Assembly: GCA_965227515.1 (NCBI GenBank)
Contig: CBDDFZ010000001.1
Location: 3,615,692 to 3,679,691, forward strand
Source of the DNA: Alphaproteobacteria bacterium
GTDB taxonomy: Bacteria; Pseudomonadota; Alphaproteobacteria; CALKHQ01
Length of the DNA: 64,000 nt
Direction: 5' to 3'
The position numbers and the translations under genes are program-made. The notes beneath the pieces were generated by a model. The model was not told where the DNA came from, did not search any database, and saw only the letters and a program-made list of their open reading frames with translations. Of this stretch, positions 1 to 32,606 are shown piece after piece. The first letter of the stretch is position 1; every line of letters begins with the position of its first letter.

Positions 1-560
1 CGTTCTGCGCTTCGGCCCGCACCTCGCCGCACAATTGGGTGTTCCTGGAGGGCGTGAAGGCGGCACTGTGCGCGGACCAGGGCTGGAAGGGCGGCGACTA
101 CGCTTCGCCACCGGTCGCCGGGCTGAAGGCATTCGCGCGCGTCTATGCCGGCTGGGCCTATTCGCAGACCTTCTATCGCGAGGGGCTCTTCCGCCAGCTC
201 GGCTTCGCGACGCCGGAAGACCTGCTGGTCGACTGGGAGGACGACCACGCCACGAACTGGGATGCCAACGACCTGCTGGCCAAGCTCGCGACCTGGCAGG
301 CCGGCGATATCAGTGCCAATCCGCTTTATGGCGGCGATTTCGAAAAGGCCCTGGGGGCGATCACCGCGCGTGCGATCCTGATGCCGTCGACCACCGACCT
401 CTACTTCCCGCCTGATGACAATGCCATCGAGGCGCGGCACATGCCCAACGCCGAGTTCCGTCCGTACGCGTCCGACTGGGGCCATTGCGCCGCCAGCCCG
501 GGCAACGACCCCGGCTTCACCGCCGCCCTTGAGGCCAATTTGCGCGAGTTGTTGGGATAG
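1..560 (+). CDS. alpha/beta-fold hydrolase, MetX/homoserine O-acetyltransferase-like, C-terminal part (5' end outside window)
   Basis: Frame is open from the window edge (codon phase from nt 3) to TAG at 558-560. Segments DLYFPPDD and DWGHCA resemble the acid and His regions of MetX-type hydrolases. Codon third positions are GC-rich. Confidence 0.55.
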   Translation, partial: FCASARTSPHNWVFLEGVKAALCADQGWKGGDYASPPVAGLKAFARVYAGWAYSQTFYREGLFRQLGFATPEDLLVDWEDDHATNWDANDLLAKLATWQAGDISANPLYGGDFEKALGAITARAILMPSTTDLYFPPDDNAIEARHMPNAEFRPYASDWGHCAASPGNDPGFTAALEANLRELLG

Positions 561-597
561 GTCCCAAAATCGTCGCCCTCGTCGCCCCACCCCACTC

Positions 598-798
598 GTC
601 GTCCTCGCCCTTGTGGCGAGGACCCATGGCGGTGCCGGTCCCGATGCGCGAGTTGAAGGTCTCTACCGGCGTTGCCGGACGCGTGCAGCCCTCTGGAACC
701 GATCCCGCATGTCGCCCAGGAATGGGTCCTCGCCACAAGGGCGAGGACGACGAAGGAGTGGATTGCCGCGTCGCGCTAACGCGCTCCTCGCAATGACG
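598..798. repeat. REP-like hairpin elements in a convergent intergenic gap
   Basis: GTCGTCCTCGCCCTTGTGGCGAGGACCCAT (598-627) and its inverted copy (722-751) each form a CCTCGCC/GGCGAGG hairpin. GATTGCCGCGTCGCG..CGCTCCTCGCAATGACG (761-798) is the inverse of the element at 56520-56562. The hairpin family recurs at 56689-56715 and 56833-56862. Confidence 0.6.
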
Positions 799-813: not shown

Positions 814-1848
814 CTACCCCGCGGGGCGCTTGATCGACTGGTCCACCAAGTCGCCGCGATGCTGCGCGATGGCCGCCATCAGCCGCAGCACCACGCACAC
901 CGCCAGCCGGCTGGTAACACCGCTGACATCGAATATCGGCGCCAGTTCCGACACCTCGATCACGCTCGGCCGGCCCCGCTTTCCGAGTGCTGAGGCGATG
1001 CGCATCATCTCGCGCGATTCCAGCCCGCCCGGCTCGGCCGACGTCACCCCCGGCGCCATTGACGCGTCCATGACGTTGAAGTTGAAACTGAGGTACTGCG
1101 CGTCCGTGCCATTCCAGGCCCGGTCCGCCGCCTCCGCCGCGCCGGCGTCGATGCCGTTGTCGATCAGCTCGAACATCGGATGGAAGCGGATGCCGCGCGC
1201 CTTGGCCAGGTCGACCCAGTCCTTCGGGTTCATCGAGTTGCGCGCGCCGATATGGCCGATATTCGCCGCCGCCAGGTTCGGCAGCTCGGAGATGCGGGCG
1301 AGCGCGCATGTGCTGACGTCGGCCTGACCGGCCCAGTTGTCGGCCAGGTCCAGATTGGCGCCGAAATGGAGGTAGCCCATTTTCTTGTCGGCACCCAGAT
1401 GATCCGACAGCGCCTTGGTCGCCGGGATCGAGATCGAGCGGTCGCCGCCGCAAACGATGGGCGTGATGCCGGCTTCCAGCACCTTCCGGACCGCGTCGTA
1501 AATGCGCTGCCGCGACAGGGTCGGGTTCACCTTCGGCATCGACACGTCGCCGCAGTCGACCGCCGCACCCTGCAGGTCGACCTGATATTCGAACCAGTAG
1601 GGGAAGTATTCCTGGGAGGCGATGCGGAACTCTCGCGGCCCCTCCTCCGAGCCCGGCTTGCCGACATTGCCCTCGTCGAACGGCACGCCGACGAACGCGT
1701 ACTCGACGCCGGCCTCCTTCAGCTTCTCGGTGTCCAGCGGCACGTGGTCGGCGCGCAGGAAGGTGAGTTGCGTCGGCGAGCGGTAGTTTTCGGCATCGTC
1801 GCCACCCAGCGGCGAGAAGATGTGGGCATAGGCCTTGGCGGGGTTCAT
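814..1848 (-). CDS. ureohydrolase (arginase/agmatinase) family protein with degenerate metal-binding motifs; probable non-catalytic partner subunit
   Basis: 344 aa, ATG with AAGGAA SD. Clear paralogue of the upstream gene (EYFPYWFEYQVDL vs QYFPYMFEYDVDL). It carries GGDRS, HFGANLD and SFNFNVMD in place of GGDHS, DxHxD and DxD. Confidence 0.8.
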   Translation of the reverse strand: MNPAKAYAHIFSPLGGDDAENYRSPTQLTFLRADHVPLDTEKLKEAGVEYAFVGVPFDEGNVGKPGSEEGPREFRIASQEYFPYWFEYQVDLQGAAVDCGDVSMPKVNPTLSRQRIYDAVRKVLEAGITPIVCGGDRSISIPATKALSDHLGADKKMGYLHFGANLDLADNWAGQADVSTCALARISELPNLAAANIGHIGARNSMNPKDWVDLAKARGIRFHPMFELIDNGIDAGAAEAADRAWNGTDAQYLSFNFNVMDASMAPGVTSAEPGGLESREMMRIASALGKRGRPSVIEVSELAPIFDVSGVTSRLAVCVVLRLMAAIAQHRGDLVDQSIKRPAG

Positions 1849-1865
1849 GACGTTTCCTTAGATAT

Positions 1866-2924
1866 TCAGGCCGTCTGGCCGGCGGCGCGCAGGGTGGCGG
1901 CCCGGCTGCCGAGATAGTGGTAGACCATGCAGGCGACGAGCTTGATGCTCATCTGGCTGACGTCGAACATCGGGCACAGCTCGGAGATTTCGAGCACATC
2001 GGCGCCATAGGTGCCGGCGATGCGGGCAAGCTGGATCGCCTCGCGCGGCTTGATGCCGAAGCACTCCGGCGCCGTCGTGCCGGGCATGCAGCTCGCGTCC
2101 AGAGAATCCGTGTCCCACGAGCAATAGACCGCGTCGGTACCGTTCCAGGCGATGTCGAAGATCTCGCGGGTGCAGACGTCGACCCCGCGCTCCGCCGCCT
2201 CCATCATCGGGATGATGCGGACCTGATTGTCGACGAAGAAGTCGTGCCAGTCCTTCGGGTTCAGCCCGTTGCGCGAGCCCATGTGGGCCATGTTGGCGCC
2301 GTCGCAGTTCGGCAGGTCGAACGCGCGCGCCGGGCCGGAGCAGTTGGTGTTGCGGATGCCGCCCCAGTCGGGCGCGGAGTCCAGGTGGCAGTCGATGTGC
2401 AGGTAGCCGATCTTGCCGTCGCGGTGGAAATCGGACAGCGCGTGGGCGGCTGGGATCGGCGCCGAGTGGTCGCCACCGCAGAATATCACCTTGGCACCGC
2501 CCTCCAGGCACTCGGTGATGTACTGGTGAATGTACTCGTGGCTGCGGTCGTTGTTGCCGGGCACGATCGGCACGTCGCCGCAGTCGACCGGCCGGAAGAA
2601 CGAGACCAGGTCGACATCGTACTCGAACATATAGGGGAAGTACTGGGTGGTCGCCTCACGCAGGCCGGCCGGCCCCTGCGAGGTGCCTGCGCGCACCATC
2701 TGGCCCTGATCCCACGGCACGCCCAGGAAGCAGATCTTCGCCCCCATCTCGCGGATCGCATGGCGGTCGGGCGGGCAATAGGGCGCGTTCATGAAGGTGG
2801 CGATGCCGGCCGACTTGAAGGTGCCGTTGTGCAGCTTGGGCGAGTTGATGTGATCGTCGGCGCCGCGCTGCTGCTGCGGCCCCTGGTGCTGGTGCGGCAC
2901 GAACTCCCAGGTGCCAGTGCTCAT
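1866..2924 (-). CDS. ureohydrolase (arginase/agmatinase/guanidine-hydrolase) family protein, catalytic-type subunit
   Basis: 352 aa. All three arginase-fold metal motifs are intact: CGGDHS, HIDCHLD, SWDTDSLD. The start lies 7 nt after the hypA stop. Confidence 0.85.
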   Translation of the reverse strand: MSTGTWEFVPHQHQGPQQQRGADDHINSPKLHNGTFKSAGIATFMNAPYCPPDRHAIREMGAKICFLGVPWDQGQMVRAGTSQGPAGLREATTQYFPYMFEYDVDLVSFFRPVDCGDVPIVPGNNDRSHEYIHQYITECLEGGAKVIFCGGDHSAPIPAAHALSDFHRDGKIGYLHIDCHLDSAPDWGGIRNTNCSGPARAFDLPNCDGANMAHMGSRNGLNPKDWHDFFVDNQVRIIPMMEAAERGVDVCTREIFDIAWNGTDAVYCSWDTDSLDASCMPGTTAPECFGIKPREAIQLARIAGTYGADVLEISELCPMFDVSQMSIKLVACMVYHYLGSRAATLRAAGQTA

Positions 2925-2931: not shown

Positions 2932-3327
2932 TCATGGGCGGTGTTCCTCGAACGCGGGTTGGATGGGTCGGGCCGGCGATGCCGGCGCGCCGAACTCGAT
3001 GCCGGTGACCTGCATCTCGCGGCCGGTCACCACCTCGTTCGCCGGCATGCCGCAGGTGCCGCAGCGGAAGGTGTAGCGCGCGGTCGGCCGGCGGGCGGCG
3101 TTGCATGTGCGGCACTGCACGGTCAGTGGCACTTCCTCGATCTCCAGGGCGGCGCCGTCGCACACCGTGCCGCGTGCCGCACGATCGAAGCAGAACAGGA
3201 GCGCGCGCCGGAAGCCCGACAGCTCGCCGAGCCGGATACGGATGGCGGCGACGTGCGTCTCGCCCTGGCTGGCGGCGTGTGCGGCCACCATCTCGATCAA
3301 ATTGCGGGCAATGGTCAGCTCATGCAT
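2932..3327 (-). CDS. hypA: HypA-type nickel metallochaperone
   Basis: N-terminal MHE(L) Ni-binding motif and two CxxC pairs (CRTC ... CGTC). The start overlaps the hypB stop by 8 nt. The longer ORF-track start (3429) would overlap hypB and is rejected. Confidence 0.85.
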
Positions 3328-4135
3328 GGGCGTGATGCGGTGTTGGCGACGCTTGGACCGCATCGCGGGTGCGGGCGAGCCAGTCGACCCAGCCCGCCAT
3401 GCCCTCGCCGGTCCGCGCCGAGAGCTCAAGCACCTCGATGTCGGGGTTCAATGCGCGGGCATGCGCGATGCAGCGCGCCACATCGAAATCGACATGGGGC
3501 AGCAGGTCGATCTTGTTCAGCACCATCAGGTCGGCGGCCATGAACATATCGGGGTACTTGGCCGGCTTGTCGTCGCCCTCGGTCACCGACAGCACGGCGA
3601 CCTTGGCGTGCTCGCCGAGGTCGAAGGTGGCGGGGCAGACCAGGTTGCCGACATTCTCGATGAACAGCACGTCGCCGGCGCCCAAGGTCAGCCCGTCCAT
3701 GGCATGGCCGATCATGTGCGCGTCCAGATGGCAGACCCGGCCAGTGTTGATCTGCACCGCCGGCACGCCGGCCGCCCGGATGCGTGCGGCGTCGTTCTCG
3801 GTCGCCTGGTCGCCCTCGATGACGGCCATCGACATGCGCCCGTCAAGCGCCGCGGCCGTGGCGGTGAGCAGGCTGGTCTTGCCGGCGCCGGGCGACGACA
3901 CGAGGTTGAGGGCGAGCACGCCCAACCCGGCAAACCGTACGCGGTTGGCTTCGGCGTAACCGTCGTTCTTGGCCAGGATGTCGAGCTCGACCGCATGCCA
4001 GTCGCGCTGGCCGTGATTGTGCTGGTGGCCGTGCGCGTGGTCGTGGTCTTGCGCGTGGCTGTGATGATGGTGGCGATGGCCATCCTTGCCACCGATGGTG
4101 ACCTCGCCCTCGCCGCAACCGCATACGCCACACAT
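3320..4135 (-). CDS. hypB: HypB-type Ni-binding GTPase (G3E family)
   Basis: Starts [10 protein letters not shown] (compare E. coli HypB MCTTCGCGEG), followed by the His-rich tract [23 protein letters not shown]-loop GSPGAGKTS, then [14 protein letters not shown] and NKIDL. The ORF-track extension to 4519 overlaps the upstream gene. Confidence 0.9.
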
Positions 4136-4146: not shown

Positions 4147-5061
4147 CTATTCGGCCGCCTTCGCCTGCCACGACGACAGTTCCGGGATCGTGCCCTCGTA
4201 GTATGGCAGTTCGTCCACCCGCGGCGTCCACGATCCGTCGTCGATGCAGGCCTGCACGTGGGTCGCGATCTCTTCCATGGTCGCGAACCACACGCCGCCC
4301 TTGTTCTGCATCTCCTCGATCATCTTGGCGACCCGCTCGCAGCGCGCCAGCCGGCCGGAGACGAACGGATGCCACACCGTGACCCACAGGCCGTTGTGGC
4401 GGTACATCGCGTCGAACTCGGACATGAAGACGTTCATCGCCTCGTCGGGCGACTTGATCGGCATCATGTAGTGCATGTCGGGCGCGTGGGTGTAGTGCGG
4501 CCAGTCGTCCATCGCCCACTGGCTGGGCAGCTCGATCACCTGGCCCTTCTTGGTCTTCAGGATGTAAGGCACGTCGTCGCCCATCAGGCTGGCGTCATAG
4601 ATCATGCCCTGGTCGATCATGTAGTCGAGCGAGTATTTGGAGAAGTTGTAGAGCGGCGCGCGCCAGCCGCGCGGCTTCTTGCCGGTCATCTTGCGGATCG
4701 TTTCGATCTGGCGCTCGAACCAGTAGAGCTCCTCCTCGGCGCTGAGCTGGTTCGGGTTCTCGTGCAGATAGCCGTGGGCGGCGATCTCGTGCCCGCCCTC
4801 CAGGATGATGTCGACCAGGTGCGGATAGCGCTCCATGCACCACGCCGGATAGAAGAACGTCTGCTTGATGTCGTAGCGCTTGTACATCTCCACGATGCGC
4901 GGGATCGCGACCTCGTCGTACTTCAGCCACGACATGGTCGACAGCATGGTCGGCGCGCGGTCGCCGTGCTCCAGGTGCAGGATGCTGTCGGTGTCGATGT
5001 CGAAGGTGATGGCGCAGGCCACGCGGGCGCCGTTCGGCCAGGGCACGGGATTGCTGATCAT
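4147..5061 (-). CDS. polysaccharide deacetylase (NodB-fold, CE4/PuuE-like) family hydrolase
   Basis: 304 aa with TFDIDTD and [15 protein letters not shown] motifs. Paralogue of 52637-53515. GAGGGGA SD. Confidence 0.8.
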
Positions 5062-5094
5062 GGTCGTGGTCCCCTCATCCGCTATGAGAACGGT

Positions 5095-6369
5095 TCACTT
5101 TATGGCAATGCCGTCGGCCTGCACCAGCAGGCCTTCGCGCGGCAGGCCGTAGACACGCACCGGCGTCATCGCCGGCCGGGCATTCGGCGCCACCTGGCGC
5201 CACACATCGCACACGGCGTAGAAGGCGTCGGCCACGTCGGGCGCGCCCTCCTCACCGACCAGGAACAGGTTGAGCTTGACCAGGTCGTCCAGCGACGCGC
5301 CGCCCTCGGCCAGCACCCGCGCCACCCGGTCGAACACGATGCGCGCCTGTCCGGCAACGTCGCCCGGCGCCAGCACATCGCCGCCGCCGCTGAGCGCAAC
5401 CTGCCCGCCGACATAGATCTCCTCGCCCGCCGCAAGCCCGTCCGACGCGAAGGCCGGCTGGTAGCGCCCGCCCAGGTCCGCGGCGGACAGCACGTGGCGC
5501 GCCGGGTCGATCACCGCCATGGCGTCGATCTCCAGCACCAGGCCGGGATAGAGCAGGTCGACCCCGAAGGCGGAGAACACCGGCCCCGGTGCTTTGAAAA
5601 CCTCGCCCGACACGTCCAGGATCGATGGCAGATAGCCGGTCGCCGGATCGCCGCCCTGCGATTGCTTGAAGCAGATCTTCACCCGCACGACGTCGTCCAG
5701 CGTGCCGCCGGCATCGACGACCACCTGCTCGATGAAGCGATAGATATTGCGGGTCTGGGTCACCACGTCGTCGACCGCCACCGACCGGCCCTTCTCGTCG
5801 GCCGAGATCTGGCCGCCGACGAAGATCTGGTTGCCGGTGCGCCACCCCTGGGAAAGCGGCACCGCGATGCTCCAGTCCCAGCTTCCGTCGGGCATGATGC
5901 GCTGGCGGGTGCGCCGTGCCCCGCCGCGCAGCGCTACCCCTTCGATCTGGATCAACTGGCCGGCATAGGGCATGCCCTTGATCCGCACCGCGGTCGCCGC
6001 CGGGCCGGGATCGGGGAAGTACTCCAGACGGACGGCGGTCATGTCCTCCCAGTACTTGGTGGCGTCGGCATCGTCGCCCTCGAAGACGTAGTAGGTGTTC
6101 AGGCGCGCCAGATCGGCCATCTCCAGGCCCGACTGCGCCAGGGTCGCCTTCATGTTCTCGAACACATTGCGGGTCTGGGCGGCGATGTCGCCGGCATCTT
6201 TCACCGAACCGTCGGCATTCAGGGTCTGCTGCCCGCTGACGAAGACCTGGTCGCCGATCTCCACCGACTGCGCGAACGGCACGGGCCGCGCCCAAGCCCA
6301 AACGCCGCCATTGTCGGCGTTGGCGGTTCGCGGCGTCGCATCGCCGGGGTGCGGGACAGGCTGGCTCAT
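5095..6369 (-). CDS. fusion protein with three tandem YjgF/RidA (endoribonuclease L-PSP) domains
   Basis: 424 aa. Three successive ~125-aa units each carry the (V/I)(F/Y)V(S/G)GQ .. Q(T/A)R(N/I)(V/I)(F/Y) .. domain pattern. Confidence 0.8.
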   Translation of the reverse strand: MSQPVPHPGDATPRTANADNGGVWAWARPVPFAQSVEIGDQVFVSGQQTLNADGSVKDAGDIAAQTRNVFENMKATLAQSGLEMADLARLNTYYVFEGDDADATKYWEDMTAVRLEYFPDPGPAATAVRIKGMPYAGQLIQIEGVALRGGARRTRQRIMPDGSWDWSIAVPLSQGWRTGNQIFVGGQISADEKGRSVAVDDVVTQTRNIYRFIEQVVVDAGGTLDDVVRVKICFKQSQGGDPATGYLPSILDVSGEVFKAPGPVFSAFGVDLLYPGLVLEIDAMAVIDPARHVLSAADLGGRYQPAFASDGLAAGEEIYVGGQVALSGGGDVLAPGDVAGQARIVFDRVARVLAEGGASLDDLVKLNLFLVGEEGAPDVADAFYAVCDVWRQVAPNARPAMTPVRVYGLPREGLLVQADGIAIK

Positions 6370-6418
6370 TGTGTCGGGTCCGATTCAGGCACGTCAGATC
6401 AAGCGGATATGGGCAGGG

Positions 6419-7405
6419 TCAGCCGGCAACGGCCAGGCCGCGGTGATACTGCTCCAGGGCAGCGATCGCCTCCTCGGCCGCGCCGTCGCTTTCCGGCAGA
6501 GCACCGCAGTAGGTCTGGATGGCCTTCGCGGCCAGCGGCTTCCATTTCTCGATCCAGTCGCGCATCGCGGCACGGCTCGCCTCGTTGCCGGCGGCGAACT
6601 CCACCAGTGCCGCGCTCCACCGGCGCGACCGCTCGGCATCGCGCAACTGGTTGTCGGCCAGCATCGCCAGCAGCGGGTCGCGGAAGCGCCGCGCCGTCTT
6701 GCCGAGCTGGCGCAGGCATTCGTCGGCGGCCGGCTTGGCGACCACGTTCAGCGCAATGAAGTTTTCGCCCCAGTCGTAGGTGGCCAGCGTGCGCTCGATC
6801 AGTTCGCGCAGGCCCTGCCACGCCGGGTGCTCTTCCCAGTGCCGGCGCTCGTCCTTGCCGAAGCCGCGGTCGGGATGCGCGATCCGAAGCTCGCGGGTGC
6901 GATAGGCCATGCGCGACAGCCAGCGGAACTCGTCGCCCTCCTGGAACCCGGCGGCCGCCGTGATGGTGCTGGCGGGCGCAATCTGCAGGATGTAGGCGGC
7001 GCCCATCTGCAACGCCATCTGCAGGTAGCGGCGCGGCGTGTAGAGGGATTCCAGCACGCCCAGCCAGTCGTCGGCCAACTCGCTGTCGTAGCCCTGCTCG
7101 TTGTGCTCGTCGAGCAGGCCGTCGATGTATTCCTCCTGGCCGTCCTGGGTGCGGGTATAGACACGGTAGACTAGCTCGTCCGGGTCGCGGAACCCCTCCC
7201 AGTCGTCATGCTGCAGCGGGCTCTCGGCGACGTTCTTCTGGTACCAGGTATTCATATCCAGCAACGGCGCCGGCGACAGCTCATAGGCCTGGTCGGGGTA
7301 GCGGTTGCGGGTCTGCAGGTTGGTGGTGACGATCTCGTACTCGCTGGGACGGCGGCGGTTCTTCGCCAGCCCGCTCCAGGTCTTCATGCCGGTCAGTTCA
7401 ACCAT
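6419..7405 (-). CDS. soluble diiron monooxygenase hydroxylase beta subunit (TmoE/TouE-like)
   Basis: 328 aa. Family resemblance to aromatic/alkene monooxygenase beta subunits, and it occupies the position after the effector as in tmoABCDE. Confidence 0.8.
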   Translation of the reverse strand: MVELTGMKTWSGLAKNRRRPSEYEIVTTNLQTRNRYPDQAYELSPAPLLDMNTWYQKNVAESPLQHDDWEGFRDPDELVYRVYTRTQDGQEEYIDGLLDEHNEQGYDSELADDWLGVLESLYTPRRYLQMALQMGAAYILQIAPASTITAAAGFQEGDEFRWLSRMAYRTRELRIAHPDRGFGKDERRHWEEHPAWQGLRELIERTLATYDWGENFIALNVVAKPAADECLRQLGKTARRFRDPLLAMLADNQLRDAERSRRWSAALVEFAAGNEASRAAMRDWIEKWKPLAAKAIQTYCGALPESDGAAEEAIAALEQYHRGLAVAG

Positions 7406-7435
7406 TTCCCCACCCTTCCCGCTTGCGTCCGAAAC

Positions 7436-7735
7436 CTACTTCGCCAAGAAGCGCATCGCTTCGTTGTCGACGCGGATGAACCCCTCGAACGAGGGCATGA
7501 ACACTTCGATGTCGCCACGCGTCACCGCACGGCCCAGCATGTCGCCGACCGTGTCGAAGCGCACCACGCACTCGCCGCGCACCTTGATACGCAGGTAGGA
7601 GGCGTGCTCCTCCACCTGGATCTCGCGGCCCTGGTTGTCTTCCTCGATCGCCTCGACCACGGCGTCGGCCATGTCGCCGGTGCGCATCACCGGGCCGACG
7701 AAGCGGTCCTCCTCAGCTCCAGTTCCGTCTGGCAT
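7436..7735 (-). CDS. monooxygenase effector/coupling protein (MmoB/DmpM family, TmoD-like)
   Basis: 99 aa from the ATG at 7735, which is preceded by a GAGAGGAGGGGG SD. VGPVMRTGD...EITVEE-like pattern (REIQVEEHASYLRIKV) as in TmoD. Confidence 0.8.
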   Translation of the reverse strand: MPDGTGAEEDRFVGPVMRTGDMADAVVEAIEEDNQGREIQVEEHASYLRIKVRGECVVRFDTVGDMLGRAVTRGDIEVFMPSFEGFIRVDNEAMRFLAK

Positions 7736-7774
7736 CGCCCCCTCCTCTCGCGGCCCGGCCGCCAACCGCCGCGT

Positions 7775-8098
7775 TCAGCCCACGCCGGCCGGTGTCAGCA
7801 CCACCTTGACCTCGCCGTCCTCGACCTTGACCGGATAGCTGGTCAGCGCCACGCCGGTCGGGTTCACGCCCTTGCCGGTCAGCACGTCGAACTCCCACAT
7901 ATGCGCCAGGCACGTCAGCACGCAGCCGTCCAAATCGCCCTCGGCCAGCGACTGGTCCTGGTGCGGGCAGCGCGGATGGAACGCGCGCACCTCACCGCCC
8001 GGCGCGTGCACGATCAGCACGTCGGTGCCGGCGACCGTGAACAGCTCCATCTCGCCTTCCCAGATATCGTCCAGGCTGCAAACGGTCTGGTATTCCAT
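7775..8098 (-). CDS. Rieske [2Fe-2S] ferredoxin (TmoC-like)
   Basis: MEYQTVCSLDDIWEGEM aligns with the TmoC N-terminus. Cluster ligands CPH ... CLAH are present. The ORF-track start at 8113 is a TTG, so the ATG at 8098 is preferred. Confidence 0.85.
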   Translation of the reverse strand: MEYQTVCSLDDIWEGEMELFTVAGTDVLIVHAPGGEVRAFHPRCPHQDQSLAEGDLDGCVLTCLAHMWEFDVLTGKGVNPTGVALTSYPVKVEDGEVKVVLTPAGVG

Positions 8099-8109
8099 GC
8101 CGGTCCCGC

Positions 8110-8370
8110 TCAAGCTTCCGGATAGATTTCGATGGCTTCCATCTCGGCCAGCCCGGCGCCGGACACGGTAGCATCGTCGGCCAGCGGCGCGTCGGCGCCC
8201 TGCACCTTCACTTTCAGCCTGGTGCCATCCGGGAACGGCGCCACCAGCACGCTGGCCACCTGATCCAGCGCCTTCTCAACCACGGTCGTCATGGGGTCGC
8301 CATCGTCGACCACCAGCACCTTGTAGCCGTAGTCGCCGTGCAGGTAGCAGGCGAGCGGGAAGTCTGCCAT
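8110..8370 (-). CDS. TmoB-like small subunit of the diiron monooxygenase hydroxylase
   Basis: 86 aa, MADFPLACYL..YKVLVVDDGDPM..VEK pattern like TmoB. Position between alpha and ferredoxin. The long ORF-track version (to 8685) overlaps the alpha gene. Confidence 0.7.
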   Translation of the reverse strand: MADFPLACYLHGDYGYKVLVVDDGDPMTTVVEKALDQVASVLVAPFPDGTRLKVKVQGADAPLADDATVSGAGLAEMEAIEIYPEA

Positions 8371-8381
8371 GACGCCGTCCG

Positions 8382-9881
8382 TCACTCTGCGGCCTGGGCC
8401 GGCGGCTGGTGATAGCCGTCGATCCAGGCATAGTCGTAGCCGTCGACACCGCGCTCGGCCGGGCTCTGGCCCATGTATTCGTAGAAGGCGTCCTCGCCGG
8501 GCGGGATGGTGCCGTCGAACGCCCGGTCGATGATGCTGCGGTGGCCCTTGTAGCGGTTGGGCTCGACCTCGAAGATCCACTTGCAGACCGGCGAGCAGAA
8601 GTGATAGCGGCGCCCGTCCAGGTGAATGTGGTGGTCGGTCGCGTGCGCACCGGTCCCCGCGACGCCCGAGACCTCCAGCCCGCACATGTTGCAGATCAGC
8701 GGCGGCGCCACCGGCACCGTCTTCTCATAGGCACCCTGGCGGATGTTCTCGATGATGACGTCCCAGCACTTGCCGTAGGTGTCGTTCCAGCCGGGATACT
8801 TCTCCTCCAGCCAGTCGCGCTCCTCCGGCGACACGCCGGCGATCGGCCGCCACCATTCGGTCGCGCGGTAGATGTAGACGCCGATCTGCTGGGCGTGGTG
8901 GAAGGTCTCGATATCCCACTGGAAGTAGTCCCAGTACCACGGCATATCGAGGCCCAGCGCATCCAGGCTGCGGCCGAACTGGCCGATGACCCACTCGTGC
9001 ATGAACTCCTTCAGCGAGTTCTCCCGGTGCTCCAGCGGGGTGTAGTAGTCCATGCCGATGCCGCTCAGCGCGGAGAACTGCTTCCACATCCGCCAGAAGG
9101 CGATGTCGACCAGTTGCTGCGCCTCTTTCTTGCGGCCGTTCTCCAGCATGATGCGCACCATCGGCTCGCCGATCTGGGCGTGGCGCGCCTCGTCGGACTG
9201 GATCGACTGCAGCATGGTCGCGAATGTGTGGTCGCCGAACTTGGCCGCGTCCGCCGACAGGGCGACGAACTGCAGGTTCGTGAACGCCTGCTCCAGGCCC
9301 ATGTTCAACATGATGCCGGCACTCACCGCGTCGCGGGTGTGGGCGATGTCGTCCAGCGCGTGGCGCAGGCTGATGATGATCCAGTTCTCGGTCTTCGACG
9401 ACTTGTGGCACCAGTCGAACACGCGGTCGTGGCGCAGGAACTCATAGGCGAAGTAGATCTGGATCTGACCGTGGCGGATTTCGTCCAGCGTGCCGAAGGT
9501 CGCCATGTTGCGCAGGCCGGGCGCGCGGCCGAAGCGGGTCATCCGCCCGAACGCGGATGCGGAGTGGAACTCCGCCCAGCACACCGCGCTGAAGTGCAGC
9601 GCCAGCAACGCCTTCCAGTGCGGAGACGCATTCTTGAAGAAGTTGGAGCGTGACAGCGCCGCCTTCACCGAATAGGCGCCGACGTCCTTCTCGCGCTGGG
9701 TCTTCACATAGTCGCGGTACGAGACCTTGTAGGGCTCGTCGAACTTCTCCCACTCCTCGACCGGGATGCCGAAAGAGTTCGCCATCGGCGCCGGATACAG
9801 CTCGTCCTCGGTGACGTATTTCGGTGTCCAGTTGGTCTCGCGCGCCAGATCGTACCATTCGCTCATCGGCAGCATGGCCAT
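8382..9881 (-). CDS. soluble diiron monooxygenase hydroxylase alpha subunit (TmoA/TouA-like)
   Basis: 499 aa from the ATG at 9881 (GGAGGAG SD). Diiron motifs AEFH, DEIRH, GLEQAF and DEARH. C-terminal Cys-rich CNMCG...HFCSPVCK segment. Confidence 0.9.
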   Translation of the reverse strand: MAMLPMSEWYDLARETNWTPKYVTEDELYPAPMANSFGIPVEEWEKFDEPYKVSYRDYVKTQREKDVGAYSVKAALSRSNFFKNASPHWKALLALHFSAVCWAEFHSASAFGRMTRFGRAPGLRNMATFGTLDEIRHGQIQIYFAYEFLRHDRVFDWCHKSSKTENWIIISLRHALDDIAHTRDAVSAGIMLNMGLEQAFTNLQFVALSADAAKFGDHTFATMLQSIQSDEARHAQIGEPMVRIMLENGRKKEAQQLVDIAFWRMWKQFSALSGIGMDYYTPLEHRENSLKEFMHEWVIGQFGRSLDALGLDMPWYWDYFQWDIETFHHAQQIGVYIYRATEWWRPIAGVSPEERDWLEEKYPGWNDTYGKCWDVIIENIRQGAYEKTVPVAPPLICNMCGLEVSGVAGTGAHATDHHIHLDGRRYHFCSPVCKWIFEVEPNRYKGHRSIIDRAFDGTIPPGEDAFYEYMGQSPAERGVDGYDYAWIDGYHQPPAQAAE

Positions 9882-9910
9882 GGCCCCATCTCCTCCACTG
9901 GCAGTGCGGT

Positions 9911-10178
9911 CCACGAATTTCGTGGCGAACCTGGCCAGTGAAGCACGAATTCCTCCGCACTGCCAAGCGCGCTTGTGAGAAATTCGCGATATTGCCCAAA
10001 AATGCCGCACAATTCGTGGCTGGCGTGCAGGCCATGCCGCATTCGCAGGCAGTCAGGCGATCCGGCTTGTGCCAGTTCGAGGGTTGACAAGGACTTCATT
10101 GACGAAATTCGTGCGGATGAATACCGTGGGTACCGCAAACGCTCAGCAGTTCAGCTAGTTTGCATCGAAATTCGTGAC
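9911..10178. promoter_or_regulatory. array of CACGAA-n-TTCGTG operator-like boxes in the divergent control region
   Basis: Perfect 7-1-7 palindrome CCACGAAtTTCGTGG at 9911-9925. Related boxes at 9977-9988, 10005-10019, 10101-10114 and 10164-10178. TTCG cores recur about every 31 bp. TTGACA hexamer at 10084-10089. Confidence 0.5.
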
Positions 10179-10232: not shown

Positions 10233-10994
10233 ATGGCAGCCACAAACGGCAGGTCGGGGGGCACGAAGGCGAACGGCGCCAAGGCCGGGGGTGCGAAGAC
10301 GGGCGGCGCGAAAACGCGCGGCCGCTCCAAGCCTTCCGGAAAGTCGGCCGGAAAATCCGCTGCCAAGTCTTCCGCGAAATCCAGGCGAGCCGAGAGCGGC
10401 GCCGTCGATGCCCGCCTCGTCATGGGCGCGCGCAGCCTGCTCTCCAGCAACGGTGACGAAAACGTCGAAGATGCGTTCGGCCACCGCCCGCCGCCCATCG
10501 AGGGCCTGAACCGCAGCATCGTCGAAATCCTGCAGGAGGACGGCCGCGCCTCGCTGTCGTCGATCGCGGAAGTGCTGGGCGTTTCCGAGGCCACCGTGCG
10601 TAGCCGCGTGTCGCGCATGCGCAAGGCCAACCTGATCAACTTCATCGCCGTCATCAACCCGCTGGCCCTGGGCTTCACCGCATGGGCGATGCTGGGCATC
10701 CGGGTCGCCCAAGGGGCCAGCGCCGACGATGTGGCGCGCTACTTCAGCGACTGCCCGGAGGTGGTCTACGTCATGCGGGTTGCCGCCCGCTTCGACCTGT
10801 TGGCCGAGATCGTCTGCGAGACGCCCGACGACCTGCGCGACTTCCTGGATCGCCATTGTTATGGCGCACCCGACGTGGCGTCGGTCGAGCCGATGATCGG
10901 GCTCGGTCTCTACAAGAGCCTGTTCAAGTGGGACCGGCCGATCGTTGCCGGCAATGGTTCCAATCACGGCGGCAACAGCAACGGCAGCAAATAG
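10233..10994 (+). CDS. Lrp/AsnC-family transcriptional regulator with a ~90-aa Lys/Ala/Gly/Ser-rich N-terminal extension
   Basis: HTH_AsnC-like LNRSIVEILQEDGRASLSSIAEVLGVSEATVRSRVSRM followed by a RAM/AsnC_trans_reg-like C-terminal half. The N-terminus carries AKAGGAKTGGAKTRGRSKPSGKSAGKSAAKSSAKS. The start choice is uncertain. Confidence 0.75.
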   Translation: MAATNGRSGGTKANGAKAGGAKTGGAKTRGRSKPSGKSAGKSAAKSSAKSRRAESGAVDARLVMGARSLLSSNGDENVEDAFGHRPPPIEGLNRSIVEILQEDGRASLSSIAEVLGVSEATVRSRVSRMRKANLINFIAVINPLALGFTAWAMLGIRVAQGASADDVARYFSDCPEVVYVMRVAARFDLLAEIVCETPDDLRDFLDRHCYGAPDVASVEPMIGLGLYKSLFKWDRPIVAGNGSNHGGNSNGSK

Positions 10995-11124
10995 GGAGCC
11001 GGCCGATGGGGGGCGGGACATCGAAGCATGCAGGAACAGCGGCGCCGGCGGTCGCCGCACCACATGCGGCAAAGCTCTTGCATGGGACCGCCCCATGGCT
11101 GGGCCGCGAGACGAGTGGTGACCG

Positions 11125-12024
11125 ATGAGCGTGCGCGACGACATCAGCGACACCGATACGCGCGACGTGGAAACGATGCACGAGCACGACGGCGGTGCAG
11201 CGTCCCCGGCGCCGGTGTTCAAGCCGCCGCGCGAGCGCTTCCTGGAGGTGCGCGGCACCGTCAGCCAGCACCAGACGTTGTGGCTCGGCCTGATCGGTGT
11301 TGTCGTGTTCTTCGCGATCTGGGAAATCGCGCACCAGTTGACGCCGGAGGGTGAGCAGAAGTTCCTGCCCGGCGCGATCCAGGTGGTGTCCAAGATCGGC
11401 GAGCTGATCGATGAGGAGGGCTTCCTCTACGACATCGCCAAGTCGGTCTACCGCATCTATGTCAGCTTCCTGGCCGCCTGCCTGCTGGCGGTGCCGCTGG
11501 GCCTGCTGATGGGCAGCTTCGTGAAGATGCGGGCACTGATCAACCCGACCGTGGGCGGCCTGCGCTACCTGCCGGCCGCCTCGTTCGTGCCGCTGCTGCT
11601 GGTCTACCTCGGCCCCACCGACCTCTCCAAGATGGCACTGCTGTTCCTGGGCTGCGTGTTCTTCCTGATCGCGCTGATCCTGGACAACGTGCTGGCGGTG
11701 CCGAAGGAGTTTGCGGAATCCGCGCAGACCATGGGCGCCAGCCGCAGCCATATCGTCTGGCACGTCATCTTCAAGGCGTCGGCACCGCAGATCCTGGACT
11801 CCATGCGCAACATGATCGCGGTGTCGTGGACCTATCTGGTCATCGCGGAGATCGTGGCGGCGACCGACGGGATTGGCGCGGTGATGATGCGCGCGTCACG
11901 CTTCCTGCATGTCGACATCATCATGGCGGGGATTCTGACCATCGGCGTGCTCGGGGTGCTGACCGACATCTCGTTCCGGCTGATCAGCCGCGCCCTGTTC
12001 CCCTATGTCTACGCACGGCGCTGA
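11125..12024 (+). CDS. ABC transporter permease, NitT/TauT (nitrate/sulfonate/bicarbonate-type) family
   Basis: 299 aa, multi-TM, resembles SsuC/TauC-type BPD permeases. Confidence 0.8.
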   Translation: MSVRDDISDTDTRDVETMHEHDGGAASPAPVFKPPRERFLEVRGTVSQHQTLWLGLIGVVVFFAIWEIAHQLTPEGEQKFLPGAIQVVSKIGELIDEEGFLYDIAKSVYRIYVSFLAACLLAVPLGLLMGSFVKMRALINPTVGGLRYLPAASFVPLLLVYLGPTDLSKMALLFLGCVFFLIALILDNVLAVPKEFAESAQTMGASRSHIVWHVIFKASAPQILDSMRNMIAVSWTYLVIAEIVAATDGIGAVMMRASRFLHVDIIMAGILTIGVLGVLTDISFRLISRALFPYVYARR

Positions 12025-12039
12025 GGCTGGAGGCGGGGG

Positions 12040-12873
12040 ATGAACATGCCAGTCGATCCAGCCAGCCGCGAGGCGGCGACCCAGACCGCGGCATCGCCGC
12101 CCATCCGTTGCCGCCGCGTCACCAAGGAGTACCTGGGCGGCAGCCGCGTCGCGCTGAACGACATCACCCTCGACATCCATGAGAACCAGGTGACCGCCCT
12201 GATCGGCCCGTCCGGCTGCGGCAAGACCACCCTGCTCCGCCTGATCGCCGGCCTGGAATTCCCGACCCGCGGCGAGGTCCTGATGCACGACAAGCCGGTG
12301 CTGGGCCCCGGCCCGGAACGCGGCATGGTGTTCCAGGCCTACACCTCGTTCCCGTGGCTGACCGCGCGCAAGAACGTCGAGCACGGCATGAAGATCCAGA
12401 ACCTGCCGCGGCCCGAGCGGATGAGCCGGGCGCAGCATTTCCTGGAGCTGGTTCACCTGGACGAGTTCGCCGAGGCCTATCCGGTGGAGATGTCGGGCGG
12501 CATGAAGCAGCGCGTCGCCATCGCGCGCACACTGGCGCAGAACCCGGACCTGCTGCTGCTGGACGAGCCGTTCGGCGCGCTGGACGCCCAGGTGACCTGG
12601 GAAATGGAAGAGATGGTCATCGAGATCATCGAGAACGAGAGCAAGACCGTCATCCTGGTCACCCACGACATCCAGGAAGCGATCTACCTGGCCGACCGCA
12701 TCATCTTCTTCACGCGGCAGCCGGGCCGGATCAAGGCCGACCTGTCGATGGAGTTCAAGGAGGGACGGCGTTTCGCCAAGAAGGAGGAGCTGCTGGTCCA
12801 TCCCGGATACCCGGAGATGGAGAAGCTGCTCTACACGATGATGCGCGAAGAGATTCAGGGGCGCATCTCGTGA
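12040..12873 (+). CDS. ABC transporter ATP-binding protein, NitT/TauT family
   Basis: Walker A GPSGCGKTT, signature SGGMKQR, Walker B LLLLDEPF. GGAGG SD. Confidence 0.9.
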   Translation: MNMPVDPASREAATQTAASPPIRCRRVTKEYLGGSRVALNDITLDIHENQVTALIGPSGCGKTTLLRLIAGLEFPTRGEVLMHDKPVLGPGPERGMVFQAYTSFPWLTARKNVEHGMKIQNLPRPERMSRAQHFLELVHLDEFAEAYPVEMSGGMKQRVAIARTLAQNPDLLLLDEPFGALDAQVTWEMEEMVIEIIENESKTVILVTHDIQEAIYLADRIIFFTRQPGRIKADLSMEFKEGRRFAKKEELLVHPGYPEMEKLLYTMMREEIQGRIS

Positions 12874-12950
12874 GCCGGCGGCCAGGCAGGCGGCCGGGCC
12901 GGACAACCAGTGGGCCGATGGGGGTCCACGCAACCTCGGGGAGATCGGGT

Positions 12951-14000
12951 ATGAGGGACCACATCATGCGCGTTTGCAGGCCAGCCGCGCTGGCACTGGG
13001 CATTGTCGCGTTGGGGGGCGCGGCGGCCTCGACGGCAAGTGCACAGGAAACGGTGCGTATCGGCCACTTCAGCTGGCCCGGCTACGGCTTCTTCTACGTG
13101 GCTCAGGAACAGGGCTTGGCGCCCGACCTGGAGTTCGAGTTCACGGTGATCGAAGACCCGGTGCAGCTGTTCAGCCTGCTGGCGACCGATCAGCTCGACG
13201 TCGTGCTCAGCACCATCGAGTTCGGGCCGATCGCCGCCGCCGAGGACATGGCGCTGAAGCTGGTCTCGCTGACCAATCTCGGCTACGGCTCCGACCACAT
13301 CATCGTCCACCCCGACATCGAGAGCCCGGAAGACCTGCGCGGCCAGCAGGTGGCGGTACTGGAGGGCGGCCTGTCGCAGATCTACATGGCGATCTGGCTC
13401 GAGCAGCAGGGCATCGCCTGGGACGAGGTCGAGATGGTCAACCTGATCGCCGGTGACGCCGCCGCCGCGATGATCAGCGGCCAGGTGGCCGCCGCCGAGC
13501 TGTGGGACCCGTTCGGCGCCCAGGTGCTGGCGGAACTGGAAGGCTCCCGCGAGCTCAGCCACTCGCGCGAACCGCAGTGGCTTGAGTCGGCGCTGATCGC
13601 CGATGCGCTGTTCATGTCGGACACGTTCCTGACCGAGAACCGCGACACCGCCACCAAGACCGTGCAGGCGCTGTTCGCCGGCGTCGAGTGGTGGCGCGCC
13701 AACGCGACCGAGGCGAACGATATCATCGCCGAGGCGGTCGGCTTCAGCGTCGACGACGTGCAGGCCATCCTGGGCGGCGAGAACAACCCCGAGGACGGGA
13801 CCCTCTATATGTACTCGCTGGAAGAGGCGGCCCAGTTCTGCGGCGTGGCCGATGGCGAGCCGCCGTTCGGCCAGACCAACGGCCAGATGGCCGATCACTG
13901 GGCGCTGACCAACACCTGGTGGATCAACTTCGGGCTGATGGACGAGACGGTCGCGCCCGAAGCCGGGCTCGATTGCGCCCTCCTGGGCGAGGCGATGTAG
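12951..14000 (+). CDS. ABC transporter periplasmic substrate-binding protein (NMT1/SsuA/TauA-like)
   Basis: Signal peptide MRVCRPAALALGIVALGGAAASTASAQ and a GGGGAG SD. The ORF-track N-terminal extension (12354) overlaps the ATPase gene and is rejected. Confidence 0.8.
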   Translation: MRDHIMRVCRPAALALGIVALGGAAASTASAQETVRIGHFSWPGYGFFYVAQEQGLAPDLEFEFTVIEDPVQLFSLLATDQLDVVLSTIEFGPIAAAEDMALKLVSLTNLGYGSDHIIVHPDIESPEDLRGQQVAVLEGGLSQIYMAIWLEQQGIAWDEVEMVNLIAGDAAAAMISGQVAAAELWDPFGAQVLAELEGSRELSHSREPQWLESALIADALFMSDTFLTENRDTATKTVQALFAGVEWWRANATEANDIIAEAVGFSVDDVQAILGGENNPEDGTLYMYSLEEAAQFCGVADGEPPFGQTNGQMADHWALTNTWWINFGLMDETVAPEAGLDCALLGEAM

Positions 14001-14099: not shown

Positions 14100-15845
14100 C
14101 TAGCCCCCGGTGCCGACGCTGACTCCGTAGACCTCAAGCGCGCGCTCGGCGCTGATCCAGCCCTCGGCCACGTCATGGCGCACCTTCTCAGGGTCGCGTG
14201 CCTTCGGGTCCTCGTAGCCGCCGCCGCCGCAGGAGATCGAGACCATCATCTCGCCCGGCTCAAGCTTGACCTCGGCGCAACCCGGCTGCGGGTCCAGCGA
14301 CCCGTCGCGGCGGCGCACGTACTGGGCCGACGGGCCACCGGTGAGGCCGCCGCGCGCGCCCTGCGCCGGGTTGACGTTGCCGTCGCTGACGTAAGCGACG
14401 GTCATGGTGCCCTCGGTCGGGCCGAACACCGAGTAGGCGCTCAACGCGCCGCGTGTCCGCCCGGCGCCCTCGGTATCGGGCAGCAGCTTGCGGGCCTCGA
14501 CGTGGATCGGGTGGCGCATCTCGTCGAGCTCGATGCTGTCCTGGTAGCACATGCCGGCATTGCCGACATGGACGATGGAGAGCCAGCCGTCGGTGGTGGG
14601 CGCAGCGGCCCCACCGGTAATGCCGACGTAGATCTCGTTGACGTAGTCGTGGCCGGTGCGCGGATCGCGGCCGGAGATCACACCGCACGAGGGAGGAATG
14701 CAGCTTCCGGTCTCCGCCATGCCGATGCCGTCTCTGAGGTCGGCAATGGCGCGCTGCACCGGGTTGGCGACATGGTCGGCGACGTTGGTGGTGGCAACCG
14801 AGCAGCTCGTCGGGTGACGGGGCACGCCGACGATGCAGTTCTCGCGCAGCTTCACCTTCACCCGGCGGAAGCTGCCGGCGTTCTTCGGCACCGTGTGGTC
14901 GATGGAGTTGAAGATGCCGACCAGCGGCGCTGAGAGCGCACACCCCTCCGACAGATTGAGGCCGTTCGGCATGCAATCCGGATTATCGGTCATGTCGACC
15001 TCGATCCGCGCCGCCTCGGCGTCGACCGTCACGTCGACCTTGATGGTGATGCCGTCCTCCGGCGAGCCGGGGAACGGGTCATGGGTACTGGTCGTGACCA
15101 CCCGTCCGCTGGGGATGGCGCGGATCGCCTGGACCATGCGCTCCTCTGAATAGTCGAACCAGTCCTCGGCAAAGGCGGCCAGCGTGTCCCAGCCAACCTC
15201 GCGGCCCAGCGCCAGCATCTCCCGCTCGCCGATCCGTGCCGCGCCCAGTGTCGCCAGATAGTCGCCCCACCACTGGTGCGGCACCCGAATACGCTGCTGG
15301 CACATGCGGACGAGGTCCATGTTGTGCTGGTAGTCGGACTGGATCTTTACCGCCGGGAAGATCAGCGCGCCCTCGGCATAGACGTCCTGCGCAGCCCCCA
15401 TATAGGTGGTCGGCAGCGCGTTGCCGCAGTCGGCCTGGTGCGCCTTGGCCAGCACGGTGAAGCGATGCACGCCGTCGTCGTCGATCACCGGGATCAGGAT
15501 CGAATGGTCAGCCGGGTGGGTACAGCCGTGATAGGGCGAGTTGTGCAGATAGGCGTCGCCGCGCGCCAACACCGGATGGTTGTCGGTCATGGTGCGGGCC
15601 ATGATGTCCGGCCCGTAGAGCACATGGATCGGCAGGCTCTCGGCAACCGTCAACAGGCGGTGGTCGGCGGTCAGGATGACGCACGAGAAGTCGCGCGCGA
15701 TGGTCAGGATGCCGGAGCGCCCGGTGCGCAGCAGCGTGTTCGACATCTTGCGCGCGATGCCTTCCAGCCGCGCGTTCAGCACGGCCAACCGCACGCCATC
15801 GGCGCCCGCGCCCGCGTTCGTTTTGGCCTTTGCCATCTCGTTCAT
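14100..15845 (-). CDS. hyuB: hydantoinase B/oxoprolinase family protein (pair 1)
   Basis: The ATG at 15845 forms an ATGA overlap with the hyuA stop. Hydantoinase_B-like throughout, but the N-terminus (VLNARLEGIARKMSNTLLRTGRSG) diverges from pairs 2 and 3. Confidence 0.85.
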   Translation of the reverse strand: MNEMAKAKTNAGAGADGVRLAVLNARLEGIARKMSNTLLRTGRSGILTIARDFSCVILTADHRLLTVAESLPIHVLYGPDIMARTMTDNHPVLARGDAYLHNSPYHGCTHPADHSILIPVIDDDGVHRFTVLAKAHQADCGNALPTTYMGAAQDVYAEGALIFPAVKIQSDYQHNMDLVRMCQQRIRVPHQWWGDYLATLGAARIGEREMLALGREVGWDTLAAFAEDWFDYSEERMVQAIRAIPSGRVVTTSTHDPFPGSPEDGITIKVDVTVDAEAARIEVDMTDNPDCMPNGLNLSEGCALSAPLVGIFNSIDHTVPKNAGSFRRVKVKLRENCIVGVPRHPTSCSVATTNVADHVANPVQRAIADLRDGIGMAETGSCIPPSCGVISGRDPRTGHDYVNEIYVGITGGAAAPTTDGWLSIVHVGNAGMCYQDSIELDEMRHPIHVEARKLLPDTEGAGRTRGALSAYSVFGPTEGTMTVAYVSDGNVNPAQGARGGLTGGPSAQYVRRRDGSLDPQPGCAEVKLEPGEMMVSISCGGGGYEDPKARDPEKVRHDVAEGWISAERALEVYGVSVGTGG

Positions 15846-22441: not shown

Positions 22442-22587
22442 GGCCTCAATTCCCCTGTAGTCTGGATGGACGAACAGCGTTCGACAAATCGAAGCGTGAG
22501 CGCCGCTGGAAGCATTGTCAATCGCGATGCAAAATTGTTTCGTGCGACGAAACAGGGGCAAGCCCCGGCTCGGGTCAGAGGAAACGC

Positions 22588-31660: not shown

Positions 31661-31882
31661 AACATGACGGTAGATTCTCGGCGCCAGTTCCGTCAAGCCC
31701 ACGACGCCAATCGGCATTGTCGCGCGCGTGGCCGCAACGATCCAGAACCTGCCAATTCCGTGCCACCACTGCTGGCTCCCTTCTTGCGTGACAGCATCGA
31801 CCCCGCCGGTGTCTTGCCGCTACAATCGTCCTGCCCATACGGCCCGCGCGCCCATGGAACACATTCGGAGATGGAGCCGAAC

Positions 31883-32606
31883 AATGAGTGGTCTGGATAC
31901 CGAAACCCTGGATCGCCTGCTGCAGCAGGCGTTCGACGAGGCCTCGAAGCTCTATGCCGAGCGCGGGTTCCAGCGGCGGGTCGGTTTCGGCACGCGCCCG
32001 GCGCTGGTCAGCGTCGACCTCGCCAATGCCTGGACGCGGCCCGGCAACCCGTTCACCTGCGACCAGGACAAGATGGACAACGAGATCATTCCCGGCATGC
32101 AGCGCCTGCTGGCGGCGTGCCGCGCCAATGGTCATCCGGTCGTCCACGTGACCACGGCCTACGAGATCACCGACCGCAACGCACCGTTCACCGACATGGG
32201 CCTGTGGCACTGCAAGATCCCGGTGGAGGCGGTGAACGTCACCGACACCGAGCTTTGGGCCATCGACAGCCGGATTGCGCCGGTCGACGGCGAGTACACG
32301 CTGATGAAGAAGCGGGCAAGCGCGTTCCATGGCACCGAGCTTGCCGGCATTCTGCGCGCCAACAACGTCGACACCATCCTGGTCACCGGAGTGACGGCGT
32401 GCGCGTGCGTGCGGCAGACGATCTGCGATGGGCTGGCGGACGGTTTCCGCACCATCGGCGTGCGCGAGTGCATCGGCGACCGTGTGCCGGGGGCCGTCGC
32501 CTGGAACCTGTTCGACATCGACGCCAAGTTCGCCGACGTGCATTCGGTCGATTCCGCGGTCGAGTACCTGGAAACCGTCAACGCCAAGCGGGCCGCCGCC
32601 GAATAG
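31883..32606 (+). CDS. isochorismatase-family cysteine hydrolase (N-carbamoylsarcosine amidase-like)
   Basis: 240 aa from the ATG at 31883 (GGAG SD). Asp (VSVDLANAW), Lys (LMKKRASAF) and Cys (VTGVTACACV) triad positions are present. Confidence 0.75.

Follow-up and report, generated by a model that had tools for sequence, protein, structure and literature searches.

The window analysed here is a 64,000-nucleotide (nt) stretch of an Alphaproteobacteria bacterium genome, for whose genes we compiled open reading frames (ORFs), matches in Pfam, NCBIfam, Rfam and the Protein Data Bank (PDB), and comparisons with the literature. Near its start, two adjacent genes on the minus strand, which we call alpha and beta, encode ureohydrolases of 352 and 344 amino acids (aa). 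A preliminary description of the window had named them tandem ureohydrolase paralogues, and both ORFs are indeed intact, with the arginase fold matched by Pfam Arginase (PF00491) in alpha (E 5e-49) and in beta (E 1.5e-53). The two proteins are 39.5% identical. The junction between the genes reads TGA-ATATCTAAGGAAACGTC-ATG, with the 17-nt gap given earlier and with a Shine-Dalgarno-like AAGGAA 5 nt ahead of the beta ATG that agrees with the good ribosome-binding site of that description.

The metal ligands were read from a MAFFT alignment of 166 sequences (alphas, betas and single-gene ureohydrolases). Relatives of alpha come from a scan of one genome per species (185,579 species genomes), which gives at least 119 matches, and 80 loci were kept. 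The alignment is anchored on P. mendocina MefH alpha, where the ligand columns are H158, D183, H185, D187, D276 and D278, the nickel ligands of the crystal structure (numbered H159/D184/H186/D188/D277/D279 in PMC10927577). In these columns the window alpha has H-D-H-D-D-D, all six ligands, a pattern common to 84 alpha-type sequences (78 of the 82 family alphas together with single-gene ureohydrolases). The window beta has R-G-N-D-N-N, with five of the six replaced; one of these is the second His, which most betas retain and which here is Asn. A hand alignment had given the 352-aa protein a complete metal site and the 344-aa protein one with five ligands lost; both patterns stand, and HMMER finds the same register, so the hand alignment was not shifted. 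When beta is aligned to MefH subunit A, GGDRS pairs with GGDHS, HFGANLD with HVDCHLD, and FNFNVMD with WDTDSID. A further family mark, noted in PMC11271267 and PMC10927577, is Asn199 at a position where other ureohydrolases have a catalytic His; it is present in the window alpha and invariant in 82 of 82 family alphas. In published betas the number of replaced ligands ranges from three to five out of six (PMC11271267). For MefH beta, the loss is given as four of six in PMC11399263 and as five of six in PMC11271267; in our alignment MefH beta reads R-G-Q-D-N-N, with five lost, and the commonest beta pattern, R-G-H-D-N-N, has four lost.

Amongst solved structures, alpha is best matched by metformin hydrolase subunit A (8SNF, 8X3G, 8RYI; E about 1e-178), and beta by MefH subunit B (8RYI_C, E 1.5e-158, residues 1-341). 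The next relative in the PDB is the guanidine hydrolase GdmH (E 1e-42), followed by guanidino-acid hydrolases, agmatinases and arginases. Because the E-values to the solved pair run from 1e-158 to 1e-178, chance is no concern for the identity of the two genes. The likeness to the nickel-dependent metformin hydrolase reported in 2024, to which the preliminary description had pointed, is supported by these matches to its A and B subunits and by the adjacent hypBA genes. Metformin hydrolases (MefH/MfmAB/MetCaCb; 8RYI, 8SNF, 8X3G) and the dimethylguanidine hydrolases (DmgH) are alpha2beta4 hexamers, in which alpha alone binds two Ni2+, beta is metal-free and its N-terminus covers the alpha active site, and HypAB is required in vivo (PMC10927577, PMC11271267, PMC11399263). 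Li et al. purified pairs whose alpha is 93.8, 71.2 or 61.7% identical to MetCa, and each was a heterohexamer (PMC11271267).

The window pair has the family, fold and two-gene architecture of the metformin hydrolases. Its beta resembles MetCb in the five replaced ligands and in an N-terminal cap, MNPAKAYAHIFSPLGGDDAENYR, that aligns with that of MetCb (a segment of about 23 residues in the family); at the sequence level, the aromatic residues Y22 and F82 are kept too. The earlier proposal of an obligate heteromer, in which a catalytic subunit joins a pseudo-enzyme subunit, is favoured by homology to the heterohexameric pairs. We conclude that the pair very probably belongs to the known DmgH/MefH family and has its heteromeric architecture. 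By homology, alpha would carry a dinickel centre loaded by HypA and HypB, and beta, without a metal site, would act as a scaffold, with two betas per alpha in each trimer giving an alpha2beta4 hexamer. Beta would also keep alpha soluble, and its N-terminus would cap the substrate channel. The neighbouring hypAB genes and the characterised homologues lead us to predict nickel dependence. Because the architecture, surprising in 2024, is now established by three crystal-structure papers, the pair adds a member to the family and not a principle. GdmH (Synechocystis Sll1077, 7ESR/7OI1) is likewise a nickel ureohydrolase activated by HypA/HypB-type chaperones, but it is the product of a single gene, a homo-oligomer with a full metal site in every subunit, and its similarity is much lower. 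The carboxyguanidine deiminase CgdAB, cited as an analogy in PMC10927577, shares the principle of two homologous chains, one catalytic and one ligand-less yet required; its fold is unrelated and its reaction different, which makes it an analogy only.

Five lost ligands could also mark beta as a decaying, functionless duplicate beside an alpha that works alone as a conventional homo-oligomer. Beta is intact, however, and it is under purifying selection: the ratio of nonsynonymous to synonymous substitution rates (dN/dS) is 0.05-0.18 over eight pairwise comparisons (0.13-0.18 against clade mates), similar to the 0.03-0.14 of alpha. The substitutions at the ligand positions are in turn conserved, with R, G, H/Q/N, D/E, N and N in about 80 betas, and beta stands beside alpha in nearly every locus with sufficient flanking sequence. 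Moreover, alpha on its own is insoluble or inactive in characterised homologues (PMC11271267, PMC11399263). A decaying beta is very unlikely, and the low dN/dS leads us to reject the pseudogene reading. Since beta is intact, conserved, of low dN/dS and the regular companion of alpha, we take it to be a selected metal-free subunit.

A group of basal-clade loci (L045-L048, L051, L056, L058, L068, L071) has betas that keep the first and second His, as in H-G-H-E-N-N or H-G-H-N-D-N. The alphas of the basal clade have N80, not Q80, and CAPGTTAPEP, not CMPGTTAPEC. These pairs may represent intermediate stages of metal-site loss.

The placement of the pair within the family comes from identities and from a joint neighbour-joining tree, where the alphas serve as root for the betas and the betas for the alphas (bootstraps are out of 100). 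Identities of the window alpha and beta are 68.9% and 65.6% to MefH, 68.6% and 66.5% to the DmgH of Aminobacter niigataensis DSM 7050 (locus L059), 75.4% and 71.6% to the DmgH of Hyphomicrobium sp. SMAG_U6089 (L044), and 88.9% and 82.3% to the nearest relative, from a Rhodospirillales metagenome-assembled genome (MAG; L001). As computed here, the two DmgH enzymes are 70.1% (alpha) and 68.0% (beta) identical to each other, which reproduces the published values. The two subunits separate into reciprocally monophyletic groups. The window alpha forms a clade with L001-L013 and L016 (bootstrap 96/100), and the window beta also groups with L001-L016. The alpha clade is nested in a group bounded by both characterised DmgH enzymes with a bootstrap of 61/100. 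Most relatives are MAGs of marine and sponge-associated Alpha- and Gammaproteobacteria. In a search of plasmids, the ureohydrolase genes are matched only by the Pseudomonas metformin plasmids, at about 69% nt identity over the four-gene block; the remaining plasmid matches cover hypB only. A look-up of the exact alpha protein sequence in public assemblies gave no match. The relatives, at least 119 in number, greatly exceed the 'few dozen' sequences of the 2024 work. Two alpha/beta pairs of different clades coexist in some genomes (L007/L070, L016/L078, L071/L080), an arrangement that implies that specificity varies among family members.

Synteny is conserved as well. The alpha-beta tandem is found in essentially all of the 80 related loci, in the same gene order in about 78, and hypB and hypA lie upstream of the pair in most. 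In the window (Table 1), hypB and hypA are translationally coupled and immediately precede alpha: the end of hypB overlaps the beginning of hypA by 8 nt, and 7 nt separate the hypA stop from the alpha ATG. The resulting order hypB-hypA-alpha-beta is that of the metformin and dimethylguanidine hydrolase operons described so far, all of which have hypB and hypA at this place. The DmgH loci of Aminobacter and Hyphomicrobium (PMC11399263) have this same order, with a six-ligand alpha and a degenerate beta site. For the window and Hyphomicrobium clades, the canonical locus consists of an AsnC regulator, sometimes a GS-like gene, a NitT/TauT importer, hypB, hypA, alpha, beta and a urease (ureEF-AB-C-G-D); in both clades the AsnC gene, the importer and the urease are normally around the pair. 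Urease is present in 26 of the 80 loci, as is the GS-like gene. With an importer and a downstream urease, the canonical locus fits the import of a small guanidine and the release of urea.

Table 1. Genes and other features of the window, with positions in the 64,000-nt stretch.
Feature	Position	Strand	Details
Alpha, predicted catalytic subunit, DmgH/MefH-alpha-type ureohydrolase	1866-2924	-	352 aa, ATG start, intact ORF; complete dinuclear metal site
Beta, putative metal-free scaffold (pseudo-enzyme) subunit	814-1848	-	344 aa, ATG start, intact ORF
Shine-Dalgarno-like AAGGAA in the alpha-beta spacer	1854-1859	-	read from sequence
hypA, nickel metallochaperone	2932-3327	-	131 aa, MHE start, two CxxC pairs; Pfam HypA PF01155, E 2.6e-27
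hypB, nickel GTPase	3320-4135	-	271 aa, N-terminal MCGVCGCG with CxxCGC motif, His-rich tract, P-loop; Pfam cobW/HypB PF02492
CE4 hydrolase (polysaccharide-deacetylase fold)	4147-5061	-	Pfam PF01522
Three-domain RidA/YjgF (imine deaminase) protein	5095-6369	-	424 aa; Pfam PF01042 three times; NCBIfam Rid family, RutC-like
Toluene/o-xylene-monooxygenase-like soluble diiron monooxygenase, five genes	6419-9881	-	Pfam
Monooxygenase beta	6419-7405	-	Pfam
Monooxygenase MmoB/DmpM effector	7436-7765	-	Pfam
Monooxygenase Rieske ferredoxin	7775-8098	-	Pfam
Monooxygenase TmoB-like	8110-8370	-	Pfam
Monooxygenase alpha	8382-9881	-	matches hydroxylase alpha of ToMO (E 1e-186) and T4MO (E 1e-176)
AsnC/Lrp-type regulator, divergent from the operon	10422-10994	+	Pfam HTH_AsnC and AsnC_trans_reg; start codon uncertain
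NitT/TauT-family ABC importer, permease	11125-12024	+	Pfam
NitT/TauT-family ABC importer, ATPase	12040-12873	+	Pfam
NitT/TauT-family ABC importer, binding protein	12966-14000	+	Pfam; NCBIfam SsuA family
MetX-like alpha/beta hydrolase	3-560	+	NCBIfam PRK07581 subfamily; cut by the window start, convergent to beta
158-bp element	596-753		just 3' of beta
Second arm pair of the 158-bp element	56692-56859
Hydantoinase, formamidase, isochorismatase and second-CE4 stretches	14100-18031, 34317-38220, 44156-48039, 22429-24774, 31674-32606, 52622-56340

The substrate, according to the preliminary description, cannot be read from the sequence. A prediction is in fact possible, since the specificity residues match those of a dimethylguanidine-specific enzyme; it is still a prediction. 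The DmgH of Aminobacter niigataensis DSM 7050 converts N,N-dimethylguanidine to urea and dimethylamine and does not hydrolyse metformin (Sinn et al. 2024, PMC11399263), and the Hyphomicrobium sp. SMAG_U6089 homologue, 70%/68% identical to it, also hydrolyses dimethylguanidine and not metformin (PMC11399263). Alpha positions 184 and 288-290 experimentally separate the two specificities (PMC11399263). At these positions the window alpha and the Hyphomicrobium DmgH alpha both have C184 and T-T-A, the Aminobacter DmgH alpha has S184 and S-T-S, and MefH alpha has C184 and N-S-A. In all, alpha residues Q80, C184, W192, N199, T288, T289, A290 and E320 and beta residue Y22 are identical to those of the Hyphomicrobium DmgH. 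Beta F82 is as in MefH and the Aminobacter DmgH, and is Leu in the Hyphomicrobium beta.

One alternative is that the pair is a genuine metformin hydrolase, as its best solved-structure matches and the Cys184 shared with MefH might suggest. Cys184, however, is the commonest residue of the family at this position (67 of 82 alphas), and the metformin signature N288-S289-A290 is absent from the window alpha. At 68.9% identity to MefH, this alpha is far from the known metformin hydrolases, which share more than 97% identity amongst themselves (PMC10927577). The Hyphomicrobium enzyme, whose pocket is identical, is inactive on metformin (PMC11399263), and so nearly are the homologues of MetCa, with metformin activity about 20,000-fold lower in the 93.8% and 71.2% pairs and undetectable in the 61.7% pair (PMC11271267). 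The surroundings also differ from those of MefH: there is no wastewater plasmid, and the CodB-type permease and TetR regulator of the metformin plasmids, as well as HupE, are missing from the window. Metformin activity is not expected, and the absent signature leads us to reject this alternative, which is extremely improbable. Because the pocket is that of the Hyphomicrobium enzyme and the metformin signature is absent, the pair is not predicted to be a metformin hydrolase, and dimethylguanidine hydrolase is the default prediction.

Taken together, the locus is probably best explained by a heteromeric nickel hydrolase of the DmgH type. The enzyme would split N,N-dimethylguanidine, or some closely similar small substituted guanidine, into urea and an amine, with metformin as no substrate. 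On balance, we favour N,N-dimethylguanidine itself as the preferred substrate.

Several observations weigh against a dimethylguanidine hydrolase. The bracketing of the window clade by the two characterised DmgH enzymes has a bootstrap of 61/100 only. The loop at 193-197, beside W192 and N199, is clade-specific, with GGIRN here, AGNAY in Hyphomicrobium and AGNLI in Aminobacter, and for this reason specificity could differ. Within the 64-kb window we find no urease, hupE, GS-like or M20 genes, nor any amine-assimilation gene, so that, unlike the DmgH loci, the window has no urease or hupE downstream of the pair. The natural origin of dimethylguanidine has been called elusive (PMC12508155), so that dimethylguanidine is a candidate only for the physiological substrate of the whole family. 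Lastly, hypBA-alpha-beta departs from the canonical locus in being fused in line behind a monooxygenase/RidA/CE4 operon, and this fusion may point to another substrate.

The fusion with an oxygenase module is the only new element of the locus; the pair itself is of a known family. Eleven minus-strand genes run from 9881 to 814 with gaps of at most 49 nt. The module region ahead of hypBA-alpha-beta was delimited as 4147-10010 on the minus strand, with the divergent regulator and importer genes at 10422-14000. The five monooxygenase components, separated by 9-49 nt, stand in the canonical TmoA to TmoE order (compared with the group-2 toluene/benzene type), and the CE4 stop lies 11 nt before the hypB ATG on the same strand. 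A promoter/terminator scan, which is otherwise uninformative, gives no terminator-like site inside this array. No homologue of a monooxygenase NADH reductase is found in the operon or in the 64-kb window; some other loci have such a gene in the module. The CE4 protein has a weak match to the allantoinase PuuE, far below the cut-off, and its best PDB match (3rxz) is uncharacterised; a PDB search with the RidA protein gives uncharacterised or generic relatives only. The Rfam scan of the whole window gives no guanidine riboswitch and no other RNA family.

We searched for the module in other genomes with the CE4 protein and inspected 80 loci. The full module (oxygenase, three-domain RidA, CE4, AsnC and ABC importer) is present in 37 of them, and roughly a third adjoin alpha/beta pairs, which are otherwise rare (about 119 matches amongst the 185,579 species genomes). 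For the close variants, in which the CE4 protein is at least 82% identical, about 13 of 24 modules have an alpha/beta pair within 20 kb. Module and pair are linked in three arrangements and in at least three lineages. The in-line arrangement is seen in the window only. A convergent arrangement occurs in Arenicellales/Poriferihabitaceae and related Gammaproteobacteria (L017-L024, L032, L082-L127). In a Rhodospirillales MAG (L056, overlapped by L090), all genes are on one strand in the order hypA-alpha-beta-GS-like-urease-oxygenase-RidA-CE4-M20, the RidA gene again being the three-domain type. Some modules carry a GdmH-like single ureohydrolase in place of the pair (L089, L102), and the module is frequent without any ureohydrolase nearby. 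Copies of the AsnC regulator of the module, 71-76% identical, adjoin the oxygenase module in other loci. The ABC importer (about 50%) and AsnC regulator (about 45%) of the module are paralogues of those of the canonical DmgH loci, where the importer paralogues precede hypB.

These linkages bear on a further alternative, namely that the pair is the same heteromeric nickel enzyme but acts on another guanidine, made by or fed into the putatively co-transcribed monooxygenase/triple-RidA/CE4 module. Candidates are a guanidine freed by oxygenating a larger or cyclic guanidine, or one that is oxidatively demethylated. In its favour are the closely spaced eleven-gene array, terminator-free by the scan, the recurrence of the module next to pairs or, in other cases, next to a GdmH-like ureohydrolase, the paralogous importer and AsnC regulator, and a 193-197 loop unlike that of the characterised enzymes. 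Against it, the window alpha has the same pocket and the same loop as its clade mates in urease loci without the oxygenase (L001, L007). Residues specific to oxygenase-linked alphas occur at four positions only (117, 204, 207, 214), and none is a published pocket residue, so nothing marks the window alpha as more specialised than its urease-linked clade mates. We regard this other-substrate alternative as unlikely, though well short of dismissal, and a DmgH-type enzyme of the Hyphomicrobium kind is still the better account.

The recurrent linkage is suggestive of a functional link between the module and the alpha/beta pairs. Because the module is common without the pair, the alpha cannot be told in pocket and loop from its urease-linked clade mates, and literature searches for a monooxygenase, RidA and deacetylase module found nothing relevant, we treat the linkage as a lead only. 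It is a speculative and rather doubtful proposal that the DmgH-type hydrolase acts within a pathway, oxygen-dependent and so far undescribed, for some natural guanidine compound, together with the oxygenase, the triple-RidA protein, the CE4 protein, the importer and the AsnC regulator. If true, the linkage would point to the natural source or the true substrate of the DmgH family. As a concrete lead on that natural substrate, the fusion to a recurrent oxygenase/RidA/CE4 operon may help.

We also note that a single ureohydrolase of the GdmH-like kind, about 397 aa long and complete in its six ligands, is often near alpha/beta pairs. It is accompanied by genes for a LysR regulator, HupE and a second NitT/TauT binding protein; the stretches concerned include L019 (6672-7631) and L089 (12584-13777).

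The other side of the pair has two features of its own. The MetX-like alpha/beta hydrolase at the window start is a recurrent neighbour, whose family is present in 11 of the 80 alpha/beta loci at 53-70% identity. Between it and beta, the 158-bp element has perfect 32-nt terminal inverted repeats, with the palindrome GTCCTCGCCCTTGTGGCGAGGAC in each arm. A second arm pair lies near the far end of the window, and the total of four arm matches compares with 0 expected by chance. The element looks like a miniature inverted-repeat transposable element (MITE) or a repetitive extragenic palindromic (REP) type repeat.

Further along, the window includes three hydantoinase A/B (oxoprolinase/caprolactamase-like) pairs, an N,N-dimethylformamidase-beta-like gene, an isochorismatase, a second CE4 gene beside a CobW GTPase and an amidohydrolase, and at least five ABC importers. 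As a whole, the window looks like a nitrogen-compound catabolic region.

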